A stretch of 19,421 bases of DNA, from UHGV virus genome UHGV-1602873, one strand, 5' to 3'. Shown here piece by piece: positions 656-16,772 of the stretch. The translations under genes were made by a program, and so were the position numbers. Origin of the DNA: a virus. A model generated the notes under the pieces. The model was not told where the DNA came from. It saw nothing but the letters and a program-made list of their open reading frames with translations, and did no database searches. Numbering within the stretch: the first letter of the stretch is position 1; every line of letters begins with the position of its first letter.

Positions 656-997
656 TTACACACGAGCCAGCGGCTGAACAGAAATACCTGAGCCAACAAA
701 TGCTGCAATCTTTACTGACAGTTCTTTTACAGACTCAGGCCAGTTCAGAGCATCAACATTTAAGACACCTGTCTTATAGACCTGAGCCTGTGTTTTTTTC
801 GCGGTGTCGATTTGTACAGCGGAAACATAAACCGCTTTACCTACGCTCGAACCATCCCATACCACCAGTGCACCTGTTGCATCTTCCTGCATCAGTGGCG
901 TAAATGCAGGAATTACCCCTTTATTAGCTGAAAATATCCCCAGCGTAGTCACCAGTGCTTCAGTGCCAGCCATGAGTTCAGTGTAATGAGTAGCCAT
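656..997 (-). CDS. Head decoration protein, lambda gpD family (113 aa)
   Basis: C-terminal half aligns with lambda D (LVVWDGSSVGKAV..YKTG..WPES..AAFVGSGISV versus [31 protein letters not shown]); divergent from the gpD at 9491-9823. Confidence 0.8.
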   Translation of the reverse strand: MATHYTELMAGTEALVTTLGIFSANKGVIPAFTPLMQEDATGALVVWDGSSVGKAVYVSAVQIDTAKKTQAQVYKTGVLNVDALNWPESVKELSVKIAAFVGSGISVQPLARV

Positions 998-3256: not shown

Positions 3257-5008
3257 TTATAAAAACGCATCGCAATCATCAGTAGTCGTTGCGTTGGTCT
3301 GCGTGACTCCCTTAACTTTTCGCGTAATATATTCATATCCGTAAACTTTCGCCGCTGACCTCATAGCCTTTCCGAACTCATTCACGCTCAAACATTTCCC
3401 CTTTCCTGTGTATGCCATGAAGGCCATATAGACACGGTAAAGGCTGTTTCTGGTCGTGTACTTCACGGTGTCACCACCACCGCCCATCATTAGCCCACGA
3501 GCTTCCTCCAGAAACTCCAGCGCCGCGCAAAGCTCAACAACCGGATCCGTTTGCTGCTTTATTGCCAGAGCTTCATCACCGTCACGCTGTTCCAGTAATA
3601 AAGCCCGTGCCTTTTCAGGGTCAGCAAAATTAGCCAGCAAGCGGCGGATAATTACGGGGATTTCTGCCGCTATCTTTTCCGGTAATTCCTTGTCTTTTTC
3701 GTCCTCCCTTACAATGTTGTCGAACCGGAAAATCACCCGACGGCGTGACACACCTCCGGCCCGTTCGGTAAAGATCATCGGGTCGTTATTGGTTGCCAGT
3801 ACCACCGCTCTTATTATCGTCGTGAATCGCTTCTCATATTTCGGGTTAATTTCAACGGGATCGCCTCCCGTGATTTTCTTGATGCCCGTGCCTTCCCCCG
3901 TATATTTCGGCTGATCGGCAAGGACGATAAGACGACTCCCGACAACCTGCGCGCGCCCTCCTGCATCATCGAGTGATGTCATCTCCGCGCTTACGGTGTT
4001 CTGTTTGCCAGCAAGCAGGGTGGCAATATGGGTAAATGTACTCTTACCGCTTCCCCCGTCTCCGGTGGCCTCAATGAACATCTGCCAGTCGTAGCGGTTC
4101 GCCATAATCATGTATAACGCGGCACATATACGCATCATCTTGCGCGGGTCTTTTCTTGCAGCATGTTCAAGCCATTTATGGAAATTTGGCGCATTATCGC
4201 GGATGTTTTCCCCTGCTACTGGTGGCGTGTACTCAATGCCATTGTGCGTGGTGCTCCAGTGCTCCGGCGAGTGCGGAGAAAATTCCCCCGTTTTCAGGTT
4301 AAGCACACCATTAGTGAACGGTAGCAAATCACCGGACGGCTCCCCCATGGGGTCGGCAATAACTTTTAACGCTTCCACGGCGTTATTGATTACACGTTTG
4401 CTGAACGTGGCCCTGTGCTCTGAATAGATCGCCACCATTTCGCGGCTCAGCTCCATTGTGCTGACCGGACACCATACCCCGCCGCGCCATACGTGGACGA
4501 TTTCACTTTCTGCATGAACACACACACCATCAAAGCGATCGGCAAGTAGTTGTGCACGTTCACTGTCTGCCATCTGTGAAAGTTGCGCCTTTTGCTTCGT
4601 CGGAAGATTAAGCACCAGACTTTCCCCACGCTCGCATTCCTCTTTGAGTCGCGGCAACTGCTCGGATAAATCCACTGGGCTGGTGTCAGTAATCCCCGCG
4701 TATTCGTGTACGGTCTTCACTCCAGCCACAGCCAGTAACGTAACAATCTGCGTCATGCTGTGCTCTGTGATATGTCCTGCGCGGTAAACACGCACACACT
4801 GACGATCTTCATCAATGATCCGGTAATCGGTGATATTTTTCAGTTGCTCATCAGCCAGCACGACAGGCGGCACATCGTCAGCGGCAATATGTTTACCCGC
4901 CCATTCCCGCCACTCTTTCGCATGGCTCCACGCATCACTACCTGCAAAGATGATTACCTCTGTCAGTCTGTCGCGTGGCTGTTTTTTTAAGTTCGGTGCC
5001 AGTTTCAT
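3257..5008 (-). CDS. Replication initiation primase/helicase (phage/plasmid primase, D5/P4-alpha NTPase family), 583 aa
   Basis: Walker A GDGGSGKST, downstream hydrophobic-D motif (LIVLAD); size and position after int-alpA as in P4-like and PICI elements; SD AGGGG upstream of ATG at 5008. Confidence 0.85.
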   Translation of the reverse strand: MKLAPNLKKQPRDRLTEVIIFAGSDAWSHAKEWREWAGKHIAADDVPPVVLADEQLKNITDYRIIDEDRQCVRVYRAGHITEHSMTQIVTLLAVAGVKTVHEYAGITDTSPVDLSEQLPRLKEECERGESLVLNLPTKQKAQLSQMADSERAQLLADRFDGVCVHAESEIVHVWRGGVWCPVSTMELSREMVAIYSEHRATFSKRVINNAVEALKVIADPMGEPSGDLLPFTNGVLNLKTGEFSPHSPEHWSTTHNGIEYTPPVAGENIRDNAPNFHKWLEHAARKDPRKMMRICAALYMIMANRYDWQMFIEATGDGGSGKSTFTHIATLLAGKQNTVSAEMTSLDDAGGRAQVVGSRLIVLADQPKYTGEGTGIKKITGGDPVEINPKYEKRFTTIIRAVVLATNNDPMIFTERAGGVSRRRVIFRFDNIVREDEKDKELPEKIAAEIPVIIRRLLANFADPEKARALLLEQRDGDEALAIKQQTDPVVELCAALEFLEEARGLMMGGGGDTVKYTTRNSLYRVYMAFMAYTGKGKCLSVNEFGKAMRSAAKVYGYEYITRKVKGVTQTNATTTDDCDAFL

Positions 5009-5304
5009 TTTTTGCCCCTGAATGCGTTAATCATGCTTTTCATTTTCTGGATGTTTCCCCGCGCTTTTTCCCTGCTGATGGGCTTACTGCGGGGTGCGGC
5101 ATATACCAGGGAAAAATCACGCCGGAACTGATAAACAGGCATCACGCAGTCATAGCTATACCCCTCACGGCGGTAAGTGATGCGCCGTTCTGCCACGCCT
5201 TTAATCGTTACCGTGCCGCCGTATTTATCGCGGTAAATATCGCCGTTCATAAATTCAGGCCGAGCGGGGCCGCTGGCAATAAAGCCAGAATTTTTCATTT
5301 CCAT
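5005..5304 (-). CDS. Hypothetical protein (99 aa), translationally coupled to the primase
   Basis: GAGGAA SD; stop overlaps the primase ATG (ATGA overlap). Confidence 0.55.
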   Translation of the reverse strand: MEMKNSGFIASGPARPEFMNGDIYRDKYGGTVTIKGVAERRITYRREGYSYDCVMPVYQFRRDFSLVYAAPRSKPISREKARGNIQKMKSMINAFRGKK

Positions 5305-5321: not shown

Positions 5322-5543
5322 TTAACTCGACTTATTTGATAGCAGGGCACTATTTATTGCGTCATTGAGTTTTTCTGCTGATTCATCAATAAGTGACAAC
5401 AGGCCATAAGCAATATTTGCATCTTCATTGTCATTTATGCAATCAAGCCACATATTTAATATTGCTTTTGCTGAATTATTTAAAGTTAATGAACTTTCTG
5501 CACATGCTAACAATTTAAAAAAGACTTCCCGTTCTGTATTCAT
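5322..5543 (-). CDS. Hypothetical small protein (73 aa)
   Basis: AT-rich ORF; start abuts the stop of the upstream gene. Confidence 0.45.
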   Translation of the reverse strand: MNTEREVFFKLLACAESSLTLNNSAKAILNMWLDCINDNEDANIAYGLLSLIDESAEKLNDAINSALLSNKSS

Positions 5544-5735
5544 TTAATCCCCCACCAGCTTACTTTCTTCCTCAATGAGGAAACTAGCGACACTTCCCGA
5601 AAGGCGCGCCAGTAGGCTCGCCAGCGCGGATATATCAGCATCTGTAATTTTGTTCGGATATACCTCAAGAAGGCGGCAAATAATTTCTGTCTGGTGCGCA
5701 CGTTCAGCGGCTTCGTGTAATGTGATTTCCTGCAT
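5544..5735 (-). CDS. Hypothetical small protein (63 aa)
   Basis: Start codon overlaps the stop of the upstream ORF by 1 nt. Confidence 0.45.
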   Translation of the reverse strand: MQEITLHEAAERAHQTEIICRLLEVYPNKITDADISALASLLARLSGSVASFLIEEESKLVGD

Positions 5736-5920
5736 TAATGCACCTCTTTTAATTCATACACTGCTGAAATAATGACTTGTGATAAGCCATATTCTGATGA
5801 TTCGCTTCTCACCGCAGCAATAGCCGTCTGAACATTAACAGCCTTCACATTCTGAGCGATACCAATTGTGTGGCCTATTGGGTTAACAGCTCGGGCAAAT
5901 ACACGGAAGGTTTTAAGCAT
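5735..5920 (-). CDS. Hypothetical small protein (61 aa), first gene of the operon leading to the primase
   Basis: GGGAG SD 6 nt upstream of ATG; competes with a plus-strand ORF starting at 5919, so the call is tentative. Confidence 0.4.
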   Translation of the reverse strand: MLKTFRVFARAVNPIGHTIGIAQNVKAVNVQTAIAAVRSESSEYGLSQVIISAVYELKEVH

Positions 5921-6201
5921 GACTCACTCCCTGGCGGATTTTTGCAGCGAATACAGCAACACAACCGGACGGGCAACGGCTACGCGCTTCGCGTTCCGTC
6001 CAGGCGGTTACGTGGATGATTTGAGATTCTCCGGCACTCAGTGCCAGAAAACGCCACACAAAGGCCGTTTGTGTGTGTACAAGGTGTGGTATATGATTTA
6101 CAGCAACCATAACGGCTCCTAGTTTACGTTGTTGGTTAGACGCCCCGTATGTGTTCCCAGCACTGCGGGGCGTTGCTCTTTGTATTTCAACAATCCTTTC
6201 G

Positions 6202-6279
6202 GTGTGTTTCATGTTATGAGCGCATGAAACACACGTCAAGGCTTTTTGTATTTCTTTTTTTGTGTATACTGAAACACAC
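6202..6279. promoter_or_regulatory. Operator-like repeats overlapping a leftward sigma70-like promoter in a divergent control region
   Basis: 12-bp perfect inverted repeat gtgtgtttcatg/catgaaacacac (6202-6213, 6223-6234) plus a third copy gaaacacac (6271-6279). On the minus strand, TTGACG (6234-6239), 17-bp spacer, TAACAT (6211-6216) form a promoter whose -10 and spacer sit inside the repeats. Confidence 0.5.
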
Positions 6280-6300
6280 CGATGATTAGGAGTTTCAGAA

Positions 6301-6606
6301 ATGGCAACGGCTAACAAAAACGCAAAATCACAACTGACAACTGTCAGAGTCCCACTAGATGTTATGCAAGGGATGGAATCCGTTAAGCTGGACGGTGAAA
6401 GCAATGCCGGATTTATCGTAACCGCCATGCGCGGTGAAATCGCCCGCCGCCAGGCAGAAGGAAGCGGAGAAAATCCCCTCGTGTCTTCACTGGATGCCTT
6501 AGCTAAGGTCGAACAAATCGGTATCAAGGCAGCGGAGGAAATCGGGCAACTCGTAGCCGTCGCTCGTGAAGAACTCCAGCGGCGTAAAGCCAAAGAATCT
6601 GAATAA
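6301..6606 (+). CDS. Hypothetical protein, candidate regulator (101 aa)
   Basis: AGGAG SD 8 nt upstream; charged helical C-terminus; transcribed divergently from the small-gene/primase operon, next to the operator repeats. Function not recognised. Confidence 0.6.
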   Translation: MATANKNAKSQLTTVRVPLDVMQGMESVKLDGESNAGFIVTAMRGEIARRQAEGSGENPLVSSLDALAKVEQIGIKAAEEIGQLVAVAREELQRRKAKESE

Positions 6607-6956
6607 TTAGTATCAGCGCCGTGATGTGAGTAACTACGGCGCATTGCTATGTAAATACTGGCAATAAACAGAAAAGGTAGTTCTACTCCGAATAATTTTA
6701 TCTGACACTACTCCTGAACTAACATGCGCTTATCTTACAGGATATAAATATAAATCCATAAAATCACGATTAAATAAAGTCGCTCCAAACATAAACCACA
6801 CCCAACGCTTAACAAGATAGCAACAAACAGGTAAATAACTTGCAGAAATATTTATCGCAAGGATTATCATTATTAATGACAAATCACTTTACCAAGTCAT
6901 TCCCCTCTCTTATCATAAAGAGAAAGTAATAAATAAGTTAAGGGAGTTAGAATGCT

Positions 6957-7493
6957 ATGAATCTAAAAAAAATAGCCACAAACACAAAAAACAAGATAAC
7001 AGAAACATTTAATAAACTTATATTAGAGGCATCTAAAACCCCCACACAAGATGAAATTAAAATACTTGAGAGAAGGAGTAAGAAGTTTAATTACTCCTTT
7101 TTCTCATACGCAGTCACAGGAGCTATAATAGTTTTTTGCTCTCAACCATTAATTAAATACGCAAACCCAATACTTATTTTATTGAGTGGTCTGTTACTGT
7201 CTATCATCATTATCATTCTCAGAATGATTTATATTTCACAAGCGAATGCATCATGGACAACCAAAAAACGCTCACATGTACTAGTTCATTTTCTTTCTGC
7301 ATGTTTCATAGCATCAACATTGACGTTGCTATATCAGGCTTACGATAATAACATCACACACAAATTGTACTGTAAAAATATACAACAACTTATTGAAAAA
7401 AGGATAGAGACAGAAAAAAACATCAGCATATTCAGTGGGATGCAATGCACCCCGGTATATGATTACTCTTTATTTGGATTTAATCTCTTATAA
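6957..7493 (+). CDS. Small membrane protein (178 aa, about three predicted transmembrane segments) in an AT-rich cargo segment
   Basis: Hydrophobic stretches FFSYAVTGAIIVFCSQPLI, ILILLSGLLLSIIIIILRMIYI, VLVHFLSACFIASTLTLLY; AGGGAG SD; Lys/Asn/Ile-rich codon usage unlike its neighbours. Confidence 0.6.
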   Translation: MNLKKIATNTKNKITETFNKLILEASKTPTQDEIKILERRSKKFNYSFFSYAVTGAIIVFCSQPLIKYANPILILLSGLLLSIIIIILRMIYISQANASWTTKKRSHVLVHFLSACFIASTLTLLYQAYDNNITHKLYCKNIQQLIEKRIETEKNISIFSGMQCTPVYDYSLFGFNLL

Positions 7494-7562: not shown

Positions 7563-7799
7563 TTAAACTACCCACTCACCTCGAATCCATGCCTGCACTT
7601 CTGAAAGACGATATGCAACAGCAGTGGAACCAATCTTGATCCGCTTAGGAAATTTTCCTTCCTTCTCCAGCTTCCAGCGTGTGCTGTTCGCAAGAGTGGT
7701 TAGCTCCCGACATTCTTTCTCACGGATCATTCGGTCAATGTTAGGAATGTACTCCAGACCCTTTTTATCAACAATTGCCATTTTTTTCATGTTAACCAA
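7563..7799 (-). CDS. alpA: AlpA-family transcriptional regulator/excisionase-like protein (78 aa)
   Basis: Signature LEYIPNIDRMIREKECRELTTLANSTRWKLEKEGKFPKRIKIGSTAVAYRLSEVQAWI; overlaps the integrase stop by 8 nt. Confidence 0.85.
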   Translation of the reverse strand: MVNMKKMAIVDKKGLEYIPNIDRMIREKECRELTTLANSTRWKLEKEGKFPKRIKIGSTAVAYRLSEVQAWIRGEWVV

Positions 7800-9027
7800 C
7801 CTTTTGTTTGAGGATTGTCACTTTTGAATCAGCACCTGCGATGCTATTGAGATATGTAGTCCAGAGTTCCAGAGCATCCAGTTTTTTAGCCATAAACTTA
7901 CTCCGGTTGTAAACACCTGCCACGCCAGGTAGCGCATGGCCTAACAGTTGTTCTACTACATAAAATTCAACACCGAGATCACTTAGATGAGTAGATAGCG
8001 TTCTTCTAAGGTCGTGTAGTGACCATTGTTTTTCATGGCCCAAACGTTTACCGATTTTCCCCCCAATCTTGCTTACGCTTTCTCTAATTCGCAGACTTCC
8101 CAGCACATAACCAGTATGTTTTGTCTCTTCGTGAACATCCGTTACCCACTGTCGTAGAATTTCAGGTACTGGTCTGACGATTTCAACACCAGTTTTTGAG
8201 TGATCTTTTGGTACAGTCCAAACCCAACTTTCGAGATCCCATTCGCTCCATTCTGATAATCGGGCTTCACTCATTCGACATCCAAATACTGTACAAAGCA
8301 CAAACATTTTTCGCGTGTATTCAGACATTAGTTTTAAATCAGGCTCGACAAAAATTGCCTTCCAGAGCTGGCCGAGTTCGGCTTCATCCAGAACCCGATC
8401 CCGCTTACCTGCAATCTGCCCCACATCACTCATGCGCAAATCCTTTAAAGCATCACACGTCGCGTACTGGCGTACCCGACAAAAACGAAGAGCTAATTTA
8501 GTGTCAGAAAAAACATACGCCGCCATAACTGGTGCATTACGTTTAATTCGGTCAAAACAGTCCAGCCATTCATATAGGTGAGTGTCATTTACGGGCAAAT
8601 GACCGATATAGGGAAAGATATGCTTTCGAAATCTGCCAAGCGTTACAGCATGAGTTTTACGACGCACCTTACAGTAATTTTCATACCAGTAATTTAGTGC
8701 ATCCTCCACTGTAACCGGCTTTAAGCGTTCTTCAGCCTGAATCTTAATCTGGATACGCGGATCACGTTTGTCAGCCAACCAACCACGGCACTCGTCGCGC
8801 TTTTCCCTTGCCTGTTTGAGTGACATATCAGGATATTTACCCAACGTTAGCCAGACCGGAGCAGCCCGGCCACCTGCTAACCTGTAGAAGAAAACAAAGC
8901 TCACAGCCCCTTTAGTACTCACACGAATAGAAAGCCCCTTTCCATCAGCAATGGTGATCTGCTTTTCTCTGGGTTTCCCCAGATATCCTTTAAGCGCTTT
9001 GTCGCTCAGTTTGTTCTCGCCAGCCAT
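7792..9027 (-). CDS. int: Tyrosine site-specific integrase, P4 family (start chosen at MAGENK; raw ORF extends to 9078)
   Basis: N-terminal arm-binding-like region (KALKGYLGKPREKQITIADGKGLSIRVS...), catalytic box HDLRRT and C-terminal tyrosine in GVAGVYNRS. Confidence 0.9.
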   Translation of the reverse strand: MAGENKLSDKALKGYLGKPREKQITIADGKGLSIRVSTKGAVSFVFFYRLAGGRAAPVWLTLGKYPDMSLKQAREKRDECRGWLADKRDPRIQIKIQAEERLKPVTVEDALNYWYENYCKVRRKTHAVTLGRFRKHIFPYIGHLPVNDTHLYEWLDCFDRIKRNAPVMAAYVFSDTKLALRFCRVRQYATCDALKDLRMSDVGQIAGKRDRVLDEAELGQLWKAIFVEPDLKLMSEYTRKMFVLCTVFGCRMSEARLSEWSEWDLESWVWTVPKDHSKTGVEIVRPVPEILRQWVTDVHEETKHTGYVLGSLRIRESVSKIGGKIGKRLGHEKQWSLHDLRRTLSTHLSDLGVEFYVVEQLLGHALPGVAGVYNRSKFMAKKLDALELWTTYLNSIAGADSKVTILKQKVG

Positions 9028-9159
9028 TTTTAGCCCCAAAAAGCAATACAAGCTGCAATACAGAGATGATTGCAACACACAGATAACGAGGAAAATTCAG
9101 TGAAAGCACCAGATAAACTTATTCTTTATTATCAAAAGATTAAGTGTAAAAACCAGCAA

Positions 9160-9435
9160 CTACACGAAAGCCTCAGAAAGCCATGCTAAGTGCTTGGGTT
9201 TGACATATCCCGGCGTAAATTCAGAGGTGGAGCCGCCACGGGAACGGATAACCTCACCGGAAACAATCGGCGAAACGTACAGCGCCATGTTTACCAGTCC
9301 CGGAATTTGTGAGAGATAGACTTTCTCCGTGGTGAAGGGATAGCTCTCACGGAAAAAGAGACGCAGAAACAGCGGATCAAACTTAAATTTCTGCTCATTT
9401 GCCGCCAGCAGCTGGGCGGTTGTGTACATCGACAT
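9160..9435 (-). pseudogene. E: Truncated lambda-type major capsid gene E (first ~82 codons, then 9 unrelated codons and a stop)
   Basis: MSMYTTAQLLAANEQKFKFDPLFLRLFF...TPGYVKPKH matches the lambda gpE N-terminus as recalled; the frame then reads LAWLSEAFV-stop at ~9190-9160, next to the integrase gene. Confidence 0.85.
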
Positions 9436-9440
9436 AAAAA

Positions 9441-9480
9441 AATCCCGTAAAAAAAGCCGCACAGGCGGCCTTTAGTGATG
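9441..9480 (-). terminator. GC hairpin plus U-tract in the D-E intergenic region (attenuator/terminator-like)
   Basis: On the minus strand: GCCGCC-TGT-GCGGC followed by TTTTTTT between the gpD stop and the E start. Confidence 0.35.
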
Positions 9481-9490
9481 AAGGGTAAGG

Positions 9491-9823
9491 TTAAACGATG
9501 CTGATTGCCGTTCCGGCAAACGCGGTCCGTTTTTTCGTCTCGTCGCTGGCAGCCTCCGGCCAGAGCACATCCTCATAACGGAACGTGCCGGACTTGTAGA
9601 ACGTCAGCGTGGTGCTGGTCTGGTCAGCATCAACCGCCAGAATGCCAACGGCAGTACCGTCGGTGGTGCCATCCCACGCAACCAGCTTACGGGTGGAGGT
9701 GTCCAGCATCAGCGGGGTCATTGCAGGCGCTTTCGCACTCAATCCGCCGGGCGCGGTTGCCGTATGTGCCGGGTCACTGTTGCCCAGCGGCTGGTAATGG
9801 GTAAAGGTTTCTTTGCTCGTCAT
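9491..9823 (-). CDS. D: Head decoration protein gpD (110 aa)
   Basis: Near-identical to lambda D as recalled ([12 protein letters not shown]...GTAISIV). Confidence 0.9.
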
Positions 9824-9832
9824 AAACATCCC

Positions 9833-10438
9833 TTACACTGGTGTGTTCAGCAAATCGTTAACGGCATCAGATGCCGGGTTACCTGCAGCCAGTGGTGCCG
9901 GTGCCCCCTGCATCAGACGATCCAGCGCAGTGTCACTGCGCGCCTGTGCACTCTGTGGTGCAGCTGCCAGAATGCGGCGGGCCGTTTCCACGGTCATACC
10001 GGGGGTTTCGGCCAGCACACGTGCCTGTTCTTCTCGTCCGTGAGCTTCCTCACAGTTGAGGATCCCCATAATGCGGCTGTTTTCTGCCGCAACCGCAGCG
10101 GTGATCTGCGCGTTCACGTCCGGCTGCGCCGCGCTGGCGTTTTCGCCCTCCGTCGCTTGCACCACGTCAGTAACGTCAGCCTGCGAAGCAGTGGTTGAAA
10201 CAGTTGTTGATTGAGTCTCTTTGGTCATTCGCCCTCCTGAGAGACGGGATTTACGTGCATCCAGTGCATCACGCATAACGGTGATCGCATCGGTGCTGTT
10301 GACAAGTTCATCAGCCAGTCCGGCATCAATGGCCTCCTGACCGCTGTACACTGCAGCCTCGGTATCCAGCACAGCCTGCACGGACAGGCCGGTATATGCC
10401 GACACCTTCTGCGCAAACATCCGGCGGGTTGCATCCAT
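9833..10438 (-). CDS. nu3: Capsid scaffolding protein Nu3 (in frame with and sharing the C-terminus of gpC)
   Basis: Internal ATG (MDATRRMFAQ...) giving 201 aa, the same nested arrangement as lambda Nu3 within C. Confidence 0.7.
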   Translation of the reverse strand: MDATRRMFAQKVSAYTGLSVQAVLDTEAAVYSGQEAIDAGLADELVNSTDAITVMRDALDARKSRLSGGRMTKETQSTTVSTTASQADVTDVVQATEGENASAAQPDVNAQITAAVAAENSRIMGILNCEEAHGREEQARVLAETPGMTVETARRILAAAPQSAQARSDTALDRLMQGAPAPLAAGNPASDAVNDLLNTPV

Positions 10439-15767: not shown

Positions 15768-16001
15768 ATGTCAACGAAGAACAGAACCCGCAGAACAACA
15801 ACCCGCAACATCCGCTTTCCTAACCAAATGATTGAACAAATTAACATCGCTCTTGAGCAAAAAGGGTCCGGGAATTTCTCAGCCTGGGTCATTGAAGCCT
15901 GCCGCCGGAGACTGTGCTCAGAAAAAAGAGTTTCTCCTGAAGCAAACAAAGAAAAGAGTGACATTACTGAATTGCTCAGAAAACAGATCAGACCAGATTG
16001 A
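15768..16001 (+). CDS. Small basic protein, possible ribbon-helix-helix DNA-binding protein (77 aa)
   Basis: Arg-rich N-terminus followed by NIRFPNQMIEQINIALEQKG (RHH-like pattern); no strong SD, so tentative. Confidence 0.45.
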   Translation: MSTKNRTRRTTTRNIRFPNQMIEQINIALEQKGSGNFSAWVIEACRRRLCSEKRVSPEANKEKSDITELLRKQIRPD

Positions 16002-16470: not shown

Positions 16471-16772
16471 ACCATAACGTCCGGTTTCTTCTACCCCTGC
16501 ACCGGACTGGCTGACATGAAGAGCAACCCCGCGTTCAGTTGACGCGTTAATAACCCGGTGTGCATCGTTTTTGATTATTCCCGCACACTCACGCAGAAGG
16601 AATTCCCCGTCGGGCTACGGTCATGGTTAATGCGGGAATACGGCGACGATACAGCGCATGATGTGTCAGGCTTGAATACCTTTATCCGTTAAAAGGGATA
16701 TCAGTTAAGTTATCCCGTGCAGGGTATAAGCCATTATCAAGCCCCCCGTAGATAGGCTTTGTAATGACATCT

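Follow-up and report, generated by a model that had tools for sequence, protein, structure and literature searches.

Which protein, if any, reads the repeated sequences at 6202–6300 of the viral genome UHGV-1602873, and what would it control by doing so? Here the window means the whole stretch of DNA analysed, 19,421 nucleotides (19.4 kb) long, to which positions refer unless another locus is named. The first-pass annotation had read this region as a repressor-controlled switch on island replication and had named the 101-aa protein encoded at 6301–6606 as the candidate binder. Comparison with related loci supports a switch of this kind through a conserved divergent layout, conserved promoter positions and covariation between the N-terminal strand of the protein and the repeats. 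Judged from these sequence comparisons, the repeats very probably serve as binding sites for a neighbouring gene product, a small repressor of the Arc/Mnt type with a ribbon-helix-helix (RHH) fold.

The region lies in a satellite island. Positions 5700–6700 are 100% identical to E. coli chromosomes, and at the identical locus in RefSeq the island is flanked by the two partial coding sequences into which a lambdoid prophage's major capsid gene has been divided. The island in the window belongs to the capsid-gene (capE) type of helper-embedded PICI in E. coli and resides inside the capsid gene of a lambdoid prophage: it has the tyrosine integrase, the AlpA-type gene, the primase module and the insertion inside, and co-oriented with, a prophage late gene that mark this type (Tommasini, Mageeney and Williams, PMC10111431). 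The interruption of the capsid gene is seen at 9190–9435 in the window and at 4397–5185 and 16491–16736 in locus L001, and the island has capsid and decoration genes of its own (1007–2047 and 656–997, both on the minus strand).

Most of the other island genes also read leftward (minus strand). The operon of interest begins with an Icd-like protein of 65 aa (5913–6110, Shine-Dalgarno AGGAG at 6120–6116), followed by three small open reading frames (5322–5920), DUF4222 (5005–5304), which precedes the primase, and the D5_N/DUF5906 primase-helicase (3257–5008), which is the main cargo of the controlled operon; SSB (2264–2713) and a second AlpA-like protein of 127 aa (261–644) lie beyond. Upstream of this operon and co-oriented with it are the genes for an AlpA-like helix-turn-helix protein (7563–7790) and the integrase (7792–9027). 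Two genes read rightward (plus strand): the 101-aa gene, a member of the YlcI/YnfO family with a Shine-Dalgarno AGGAG at 6288–6292, and, downstream of it, a 178-aa open reading frame (6957–7493). For the latter, only a DUF443 match below threshold was obtained, and none of the related loci examined has a counterpart; it looks like variable cargo at a place that other islands use for Bro-N or AntA genes. The intergenic region is thus, as first described, a divergent control region, with the 101-aa gene on one side and the Icd-like–DUF4222–primase–SSB operon on the other.

A perfect 12-bp inverted repeat, with a third copy 35 bp past its second arm, had been reported here. Both features are present: direct reading and a repeat search place the arms at 6202–6213 (GTGTGTTTCATG) and 6223–6234 (CATGAAACACAC), and the third copy, TGAAACACAC, is at 6270–6279. 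The spacer of the inverted repeat, given earlier as 10 bp, is 9 bp (6214–6222). The repeat search found 13 bp (TGAAACACACCGA) common to the third copy (6270–6282) and the minus strand of the first arm. Exact TGAAACACAC occurs three times in the whole 19.4-kb window, always within 6202–6279, and copies with one or two mismatches elsewhere in the window are at chance level (22 found, 19 expected). A single one-mismatch core (TGCAACACAC) is seen at 9071–9080, approximately 45 bp upstream of the integrase start; it was dropped as a further operator because matches of this kind occur in the window at chance frequency. Dinucleotide shuffling of 6111–6300 gave three non-overlapping copies of any 10-mer in 0/20,000 shuffles and a perfect inverted repeat of at least 12 bp in 0/5,000; an initial version of the 10-mer test, inflated by T-runs, had given 22/5,000, and was rerun with non-overlapping words of at least three letters. 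Since shuffles reproduced neither feature, a chance origin of the repeats is excluded.

The repeats coincide with two predicted promoters placed back to back. The leftward promoter proposed in the first-pass annotation (P_left, 6211–6239, minus strand) could be confirmed as TTGACG at 6239–6234, a 17-bp spacer and TAACAT at 6216–6211, with 9/12 consensus matches in an independent scan; it heads the operon from icd-like to primase, with a predicted start near 6204. The plus-strand TATACT noted next to the third copy is likewise found, at 6265–6270, its last T being the first base of that copy. It would serve as the −10 of a rightward promoter (P_right) upstream of the 101-aa gene, with a predicted start near 6277 and a poor, T-rich −35 (7/12). 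Both positions are conserved: in most of 21 loci the leftward TTGACN starts at −62 from the ATG of the 101-aa protein and is followed by a 16–18-bp spacer and TAnnnT, and in most loci the rightward −10 (TATACT, TATAAT or TATATT) lies at −36.

In related loci the sites are centred at about −116.5, −94.5, −71.5, −49.5 and −26.5 from the ATG of the YlcI-like gene, and are therefore 22–23 bp apart, a spacing of about two helical turns that would put the half-sites on about the same face of the DNA. The window has five corresponding half-sites. O0 (6180–6189, minus strand, TGAAATACAA, two mismatches) is degenerate and the weakest of the five; it lies 22 bp beyond O1, inside the leftward 5′ untranslated region, and overlaps the T-rich tail of a plus-strand terminator. 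O1 (6202–6211, minus strand, exact TGAAACACAC) is within the left arm of the inverted repeat and spans the last base of the leftward −10 to about +3; its centre at −94.5 from the ATG is kept in relatives. O2 (6225–6234, plus strand, exact TGAAACACAC), within the right arm, fills the spacer of the leftward promoter and abuts its −35. O3 (6246–6255, minus strand, AGAAATACAA, three mismatches) is a degenerate partner of O4 and occupies the expected −35/spacer of the rightward promoter; copies at this position in other specificity classes have the same orientation and change with the class (AGTCTTACAC, TGAATACCAA, AGAATCACAA). O4 (6270–6279, plus strand, exact TGAAACACAC) shares its first base with the end of the rightward −10 and extends over about +1. 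Taken alone, O0 and O3 in the window are not significant, but their counterparts in related loci are stronger, class-dependent and in the same position and orientation.

Each predicted promoter thus has one half-site in its −35/−10 spacer (O2; O3) and one at −10/+1 (O1; O4), and the layout of four to five phased half-sites is pseudo-symmetric about 6240. The triple repeat first described is therefore right as to its three copies but incomplete: over the rightward promoter there is a second, weaker inverted pair, of which the third copy forms the strong half, within an array of four to five phased sites. Exceptions to the spacing are loci L005 and L006, with 35- and 45-bp spacings, and in EcCICFT073 O1 and O2 are direct repeats, unlike the inverted pair of the window.

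The 101-aa protein matches the NCBIfam YlcI/YnfO family (NF041551) over residues 9–50 with 62.6 bits (cutoff 30), and RefSeq annotates 6301–6606 as the same family. Pfam at its normal threshold gave no match for the protein, the Rv0623-like PSK_trans_fac family appeared only below threshold (best E 0.0011, in 26 of 33 homologues), no RHH chain was matched in a profile search of the PDB, and tblastn against 50,697 phage records gave no match at E ≤0.01. An AlphaFold2 model from a 33-sequence alignment has an extended N-terminus, a strand at approximately residues 11–17, helices at 19–28 and approximately 35–53, and a long helix at 59–100 (block pLDDT ~78–94). The N-domain is thus modelled as β-α-α, and nearly all of its structural matches, though of low Z, are RHH proteins, with omega on top and Arc among them. 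In the alignment Arg16 and Pro18 (R16-x-P18) are invariant, and a G32-x-S/T motif at the start of helix B is almost invariant (G32-E-S34 in the window); the protein therefore has the G-x-S/T/N loop at the start of helix B and the basic residue on the DNA-facing strand that are typical of RHH proteins. We take R16-x-P18 to correspond to R13-x-P15 of Arc. Hypervariable residues 12–15 and 17 adjoin the invariant Arg16 and Pro18 in an otherwise highly conserved protein, and some UniRef homologues are already named “Arc-like DNA binding domain” proteins. On this model, the 101-aa protein is predicted to be an Arc/Mnt-type RHH DNA binder.

The C-terminal domain (residues 57–101; 6469–6603) is nearly invariant across operator classes, and natural 59-aa variants without the C-terminal helix still have phased sites; the domain may serve in oligomerisation, in non-specific contact with DNA or in the sensing of an inducer. 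We considered a dependence of the 22-bp phasing on this helix, given that the short-protein loci L005 and L006 are spaced otherwise, but dropped it because the 59-aa variant of EcCICFT073 has a 23-bp spacing. The PDB profile search also gave the C-domain a weak match of helix-hairpin-helix-like kind to Hef (E 0.007), which was not adopted because one continuous helix is predicted. The helper prophage has a distant YlcI member of its own, encoded between lysis genes and nohD (15768–15962, plus strand; 23069–23263 in L001), with 17% identity and the same R-x-P and G-x-x motifs.

To relate protein and sites, we compared 22 distinct related control regions, drawn from E. coli genomes, Xenorhabdus, Photorhabdus, Enterobacter, Erwinia, Serratia, Phytobacter, contigs of chosen protein variants (metagenomes included) and EcCICFT073. 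At least part of the region is carried by about one quarter of complete E. coli genomes, and the divergent layout, with a repressor-like gene at the head of a replication module, is kept in the loci examined from E. coli and the six other genera named. The sites are alike within each locus and different between loci, and the difference follows residues 12–15 and 17 of the adjacent protein, giving about a dozen specificity classes of operator and N-terminal strand. Strand LTTV goes with GAAACACAC in E. coli, Xenorhabdus and Photorhabdus, where the flanks and the inverted-repeat spacer have diverged; LFTV with TGAAACACA in Serratia; MTTV with GTGAAATACAC, MTTL with GTGATATACA and QISI with TGAATCACA in E. 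coli; SLTA with G(T/G)CTTACA in E. coli and Enterobacter; QLNA/QINA with TGAAT(C/A)(G/C)C(A) in E. coli, a metagenome and Phytobacter; xKNx with AAATACACACC in Erwinia, E. coli and others; MIST with GACTACAC in a metagenome; and ALKA with GTGGCCCAC in EcCICFT073.

Mosaic loci separate the N-domain from its neighbours. In L027 the Icd-like protein is 98% identical to that of the window, the N-domain is 94% identical, differing in the N-arm and by L12M, V15L and L19H, and the operator has changed at 2 of 10 positions; the L027-type operator (L12M + V15L) is TGATATACAC, compared with TGAAACACAC in the window, and the SLTA-type operator is GTCTTACAC. Conversely, L003 has a 100% identical N-domain and has kept the operator despite Icd-like, DUF4222 and AlpA proteins of 45%, 36% and 50% identity, and the Xenorhabdus and Photorhabdus loci have kept it with no detectable Icd-like homologue. 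In L022 the C-domain is 98% identical, but N-domain and operator are both different. Among the sequences compared, then, the operator tracks the N-domain of the 101-aa protein, and not the Icd-like protein, AlpA, DUF4222 or the protein’s own C-domain. A Mantel test of operator against strand distance gave a significant r of ~0.7, only modestly above the r of 0.56 for non-site control DNA, so that shared ancestry explains part of the correlation; we therefore give more weight to the mosaic loci. The nomination of the 101-aa protein as the binder is in this way supported by its predicted RHH N-domain and by a strand that covaries with the repeats as no other neighbour does.

EcCICFT073 itself (L030, E. 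coli CFT073) carries the 59-aa YlcI/YnfO gene C_RS30120 at 9474–9653 (minus strand), on the opposite strand from the other EcCICFT073 genes, with a control region at 9654–9852 that contains GTGGCCCAC twice and CTGTCCCCCAC, at the same positions as the sites of other loci. The gene has a late-added locus tag and is thus probably absent from the maps of the original studies.

Several other readings of the repeats have to be weighed against an autoregulated repressor. The repeats may be bound by another factor (the AlpA-like protein at 7563–7790, the 127-aa AlpA-like protein at 261–644, the Icd-like protein, or a protein of the host or the helper), in which case the 101-aa protein would have some other function. 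AlpA is documented to activate Gram-negative PICIs, which it does at promoters (PMC6092414), and our covariation comparison spanned the fetched flanks, beyond which the 127-aa protein and the helper proteins lie. Operator class nevertheless follows the N-domain of the 101-aa protein, whereas AlpA (31–58% identity), the Icd-like protein (45% or undetectable) and DUF4222 vary freely among loci with the same operator. With a host factor as the binder, the occurrence of about a dozen locus-specific site sequences in E. coli alone cannot be explained, and sites over −10/+1 and in the spacer are in the positions of a repressor rather than of an activator. We consider binding by another factor improbable, and very slightly less probable than the view that the 101-aa RHH protein does bind the sites but mainly in another capacity, which is itself unlikely. 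That capacity could be as an omega- or ParG-like centromere or origin organiser, as an antitoxin-like partner of the Icd-like division inhibitor, or as a promoter activator. However, there is no partition ATPase nearby, and in PICIs the origin has been placed downstream of pri (PMC6092414, PMC10111431). In Xenorhabdus and Photorhabdus the module is present at LTTV loci in which no Icd-like gene can be detected, and every strong site overlaps core promoter elements.

The inverted repeat could also act as a hairpin in RNA or DNA, for example as a terminator or processing site in read-through transcripts, rather than as protein sites; the perfect 12-bp stem with its 9-nt loop would fold, and the plus strand is T-rich 8 nt later. 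No hairpin would include the third exact copy or the phased degenerate copies, however; the arms are 22 bp apart in L005 and L006 and are direct repeats in EcCICFT073, and, as the predicted leftward start is within O1, P_left would transcribe one arm only, all of which makes a hairpin very improbable. Repetition by chance or low complexity, without function, might be suspected in a region that is T-rich and has further CA/TG-rich words at 6055–6079, but it is contradicted by the shuffles (0/20,000 and 0/5,000) and refuted by the comparative data, in which site positions are kept across genera while the sequence is replaced, and we give it practically no credence. The best explanation, and in our judgement a likely one, is that the 101-aa protein is an autoregulated RHH repressor and the half-sites are its operators, through which it would occlude both promoters of the replication module.

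On the repressor model, RHH dimers would insert their N-terminal β-ribbon (residues 12–15 and 17, with Arg16 and Pro18) into the major groove of each half-site, and the bound dimers would occlude RNA polymerase, as the site positions and knowledge of Arc, Mnt, CopG and omega suggest. The perfect O1/O2 pair would shut P_left tightly and so keep the replication module (icd-like, DUF4222, primase and SSB) off, and the pair of weak O3 and O4 would exert a milder negative autoregulation on P_right. Release may come from transcription that enters from the int/alpA side, runs antisense through the repressor gene and continues into the operon; its sources would be AlpA-dependent transcription and, in this helper-embedded island, late transcription of the helper, which is expected to run into an embedded satellite (PMC10111431). 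The int/AlpA-like region (7563–9027) is a likely source of such read-through, a role suggested by the published work on these islands (PMC6092414, PMC10111431). In several relatives alpA and the repressor gene are separated by a Bro-N or AntA gene, and a Bro/Ant-type antirepressor is a possible further route of release in these. Since AlpA overexpression alone induces excision and replication of EcCICFT073 (PMC6092414), the repressor is not an absolute lock and is unlikely to be the sole switch.

A second lock is probably added by a plus-strand antisense RNA over the ribosome-binding site of icd-like. This candidate cis-antisense RNA of ~80 nt (6092–6189) has a −10 of TATGAT at 6092–6097, in which T, A and the final T are invariant in 21 loci, and a start near 6102–6105. 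It is complementary to the icd-like start codon, Shine-Dalgarno sequence and 5′ untranslated region, and comprises a stem-loop (6101–6134) with an anti-Shine-Dalgarno sequence in its loop and a strong terminator hairpin (6139–6174) with a T-rich tail. The 94 bp at 6090–6183 are the most widely conserved part of the region and are 96.8% identical in O157:H7 islands, which lack the RHH gene and in which all genes annotated in the vicinity are on the minus strand. Folding gives −34.7 kcal/mol (z = −4.0), and covariation, with compensatory changes in the terminator hairpin, supports the fold. Across the alignment 97.4% of cells are paired, compared with 86.5% in shuffles (0/500 as high), the covariation score is 0.41 compared with 0.21 in shuffles, and slid controls pair at 37–53%. 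Read as the plus strand the fold has 67 G·U pairs and no A·C, while as the minus strand only 79.6% of cells would pair. Such an RNA would silence leaky icd-like transcripts, as a probable second layer of control. Just upstream of its candidate promoter, a terminator-like hairpin, CACACAAACGGCCTTTGTGTG then GCGTTTTCTG, is present on the minus strand at 6055–6075, within the icd-like coding region; it is not conserved, other lineages having a different hairpin or none.

RNA immunity of the P4/P1 type was rejected for the window because the Rfam models C4, isrK and c4-a1b1 gave no match at E ≤1 over the whole window or at E ≤10 on 5880–6320; there was no other credible Rfam family in the window or in 5880–6320. 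The same models do detect C4 and isrK in the relative L022, an E. coli island whose RHH-controlled operon opens with a full-length gene of the Ash family; true C4 (75.8 bits) and isrK (81.4 bits) RNAs lie inside this gene, at 780–978 (minus strand). As L022 carries C4/isrK downstream of the RHH/operator module, protein-repressor and P4-type RNA immunity would co-exist in some relatives.

The 2018 description of EcCICFT073 left open whether any repressor exists, PMC10111431 mentions neither an operator nor YlcI, and a non-exhaustive search of the literature on YlcI/YnfO, on PICIs with ribbon-helix-helix and on EcCICFT073 with repressor found no prior description. The mechanism is classical; new are the function assigned to YlcI/YnfO, the arrangement of several sites in phase, the range of specificity classes and the finding that EcCICFT073 has the module. 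The analysis proposes a concrete function for the uncharacterised YlcI/YnfO family and finds that in a widespread family of E. coli satellites the replication operon is headed by a repressor/operator module; EcCICFT073, for which reporters and mutants already exist, has this module as well. The strand variants with their matching operators offer a ready-made recognition code for RHH engineering and potentially orthogonal small repressors. As a wider and tentative proposal, the RHH protein of the YlcI/YnfO family may, together with its phased operators and the antisense RNA, form the missing immunity or master-repressor system of Gram-negative PICIs, EcCICFT073 included. Its specificities, about a dozen or more and mutually orthogonal, would depend on four or five β-strand residues and would insulate co-resident satellites, and the lock would be overridden by AlpA-dependent or helper late read-through or by Bro/Ant antirepressors.

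Comparison with known systems places the module among several designs. It resembles the Stl (Rpr) control of SaPIs and Gram-positive PICIs (PMC6092414) in the divergent gene pair that heads the replication module and in the orientation of the repressor gene, which points away from the operon. A divergent repressor-like gene at the head of the replication module, the Stl/Rpr-type layout, is present here. To our knowledge, the family of the 101-aa protein is unrelated to Stl. In contrast to Stl-type control, the documented trigger of Gram-negative PICIs is AlpA activation (PMC6092414). The early-left region of P4 (PLE, CI RNA/seqA, eta/kil, α primase and Vis; summarised in part in PMC10111431) has the same genomic position, downstream of an AlpA/Vis-type gene, and its promoter likewise heads an operon whose first gene is Icd/Ash(eta)-like and whose last encodes a primase. 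P4 immunity is RNA-only, however, whereas here a protein repressor with operators on the promoter is predicted, and the candidate RNA of the window is cis-antisense, from the opposite strand. The immI operon of P1 comprises the c4 antisense RNA, icd and ant, c4 being co-oriented with the operon and processed from its own transcript, and we know of no RHH repressor in it. In both P1 immI and the window the first gene is Icd-like, and a small regulatory RNA is likely to act on the start of its translation; they differ in that a C4-family match is absent from scans of the window.

Omega of pSM19035 and CopG of pMV158, the latter of which occludes RNA polymerase at its promoter (PMC2724298), are RHH proteins whose dimers occupy arrays of short repeats, in either orientation, over replication or maintenance promoters. 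Omega uses contiguous 7-bp heptads and CopG a 13-bp element, whereas the sites here are of 10–12 bp and two helical turns apart. In the immI region of P22, the Mnt and Arc repressors are accompanied by the sar antisense RNA, and Mnt consists of an RHH N-domain and a C-terminal helical domain. Sequence similarity of the P22 proteins to the 101-aa protein is not significant, the P22 system controls an antirepressor rather than satellite replication genes, and it has a single 21-bp operator in place of four to five half-sites 22–23 bp apart. By analogy the overall design nevertheless appears closest to P22 immI: a small autoregulated RHH repressor, predicted here, like Mnt, to have a C-terminal helical domain, is divergent from the operon it would control, its operators overlap back-to-back core promoters, and a short antisense RNA, starting inside the first regulated gene as sar does, would cover the ribosome-binding site of that gene.
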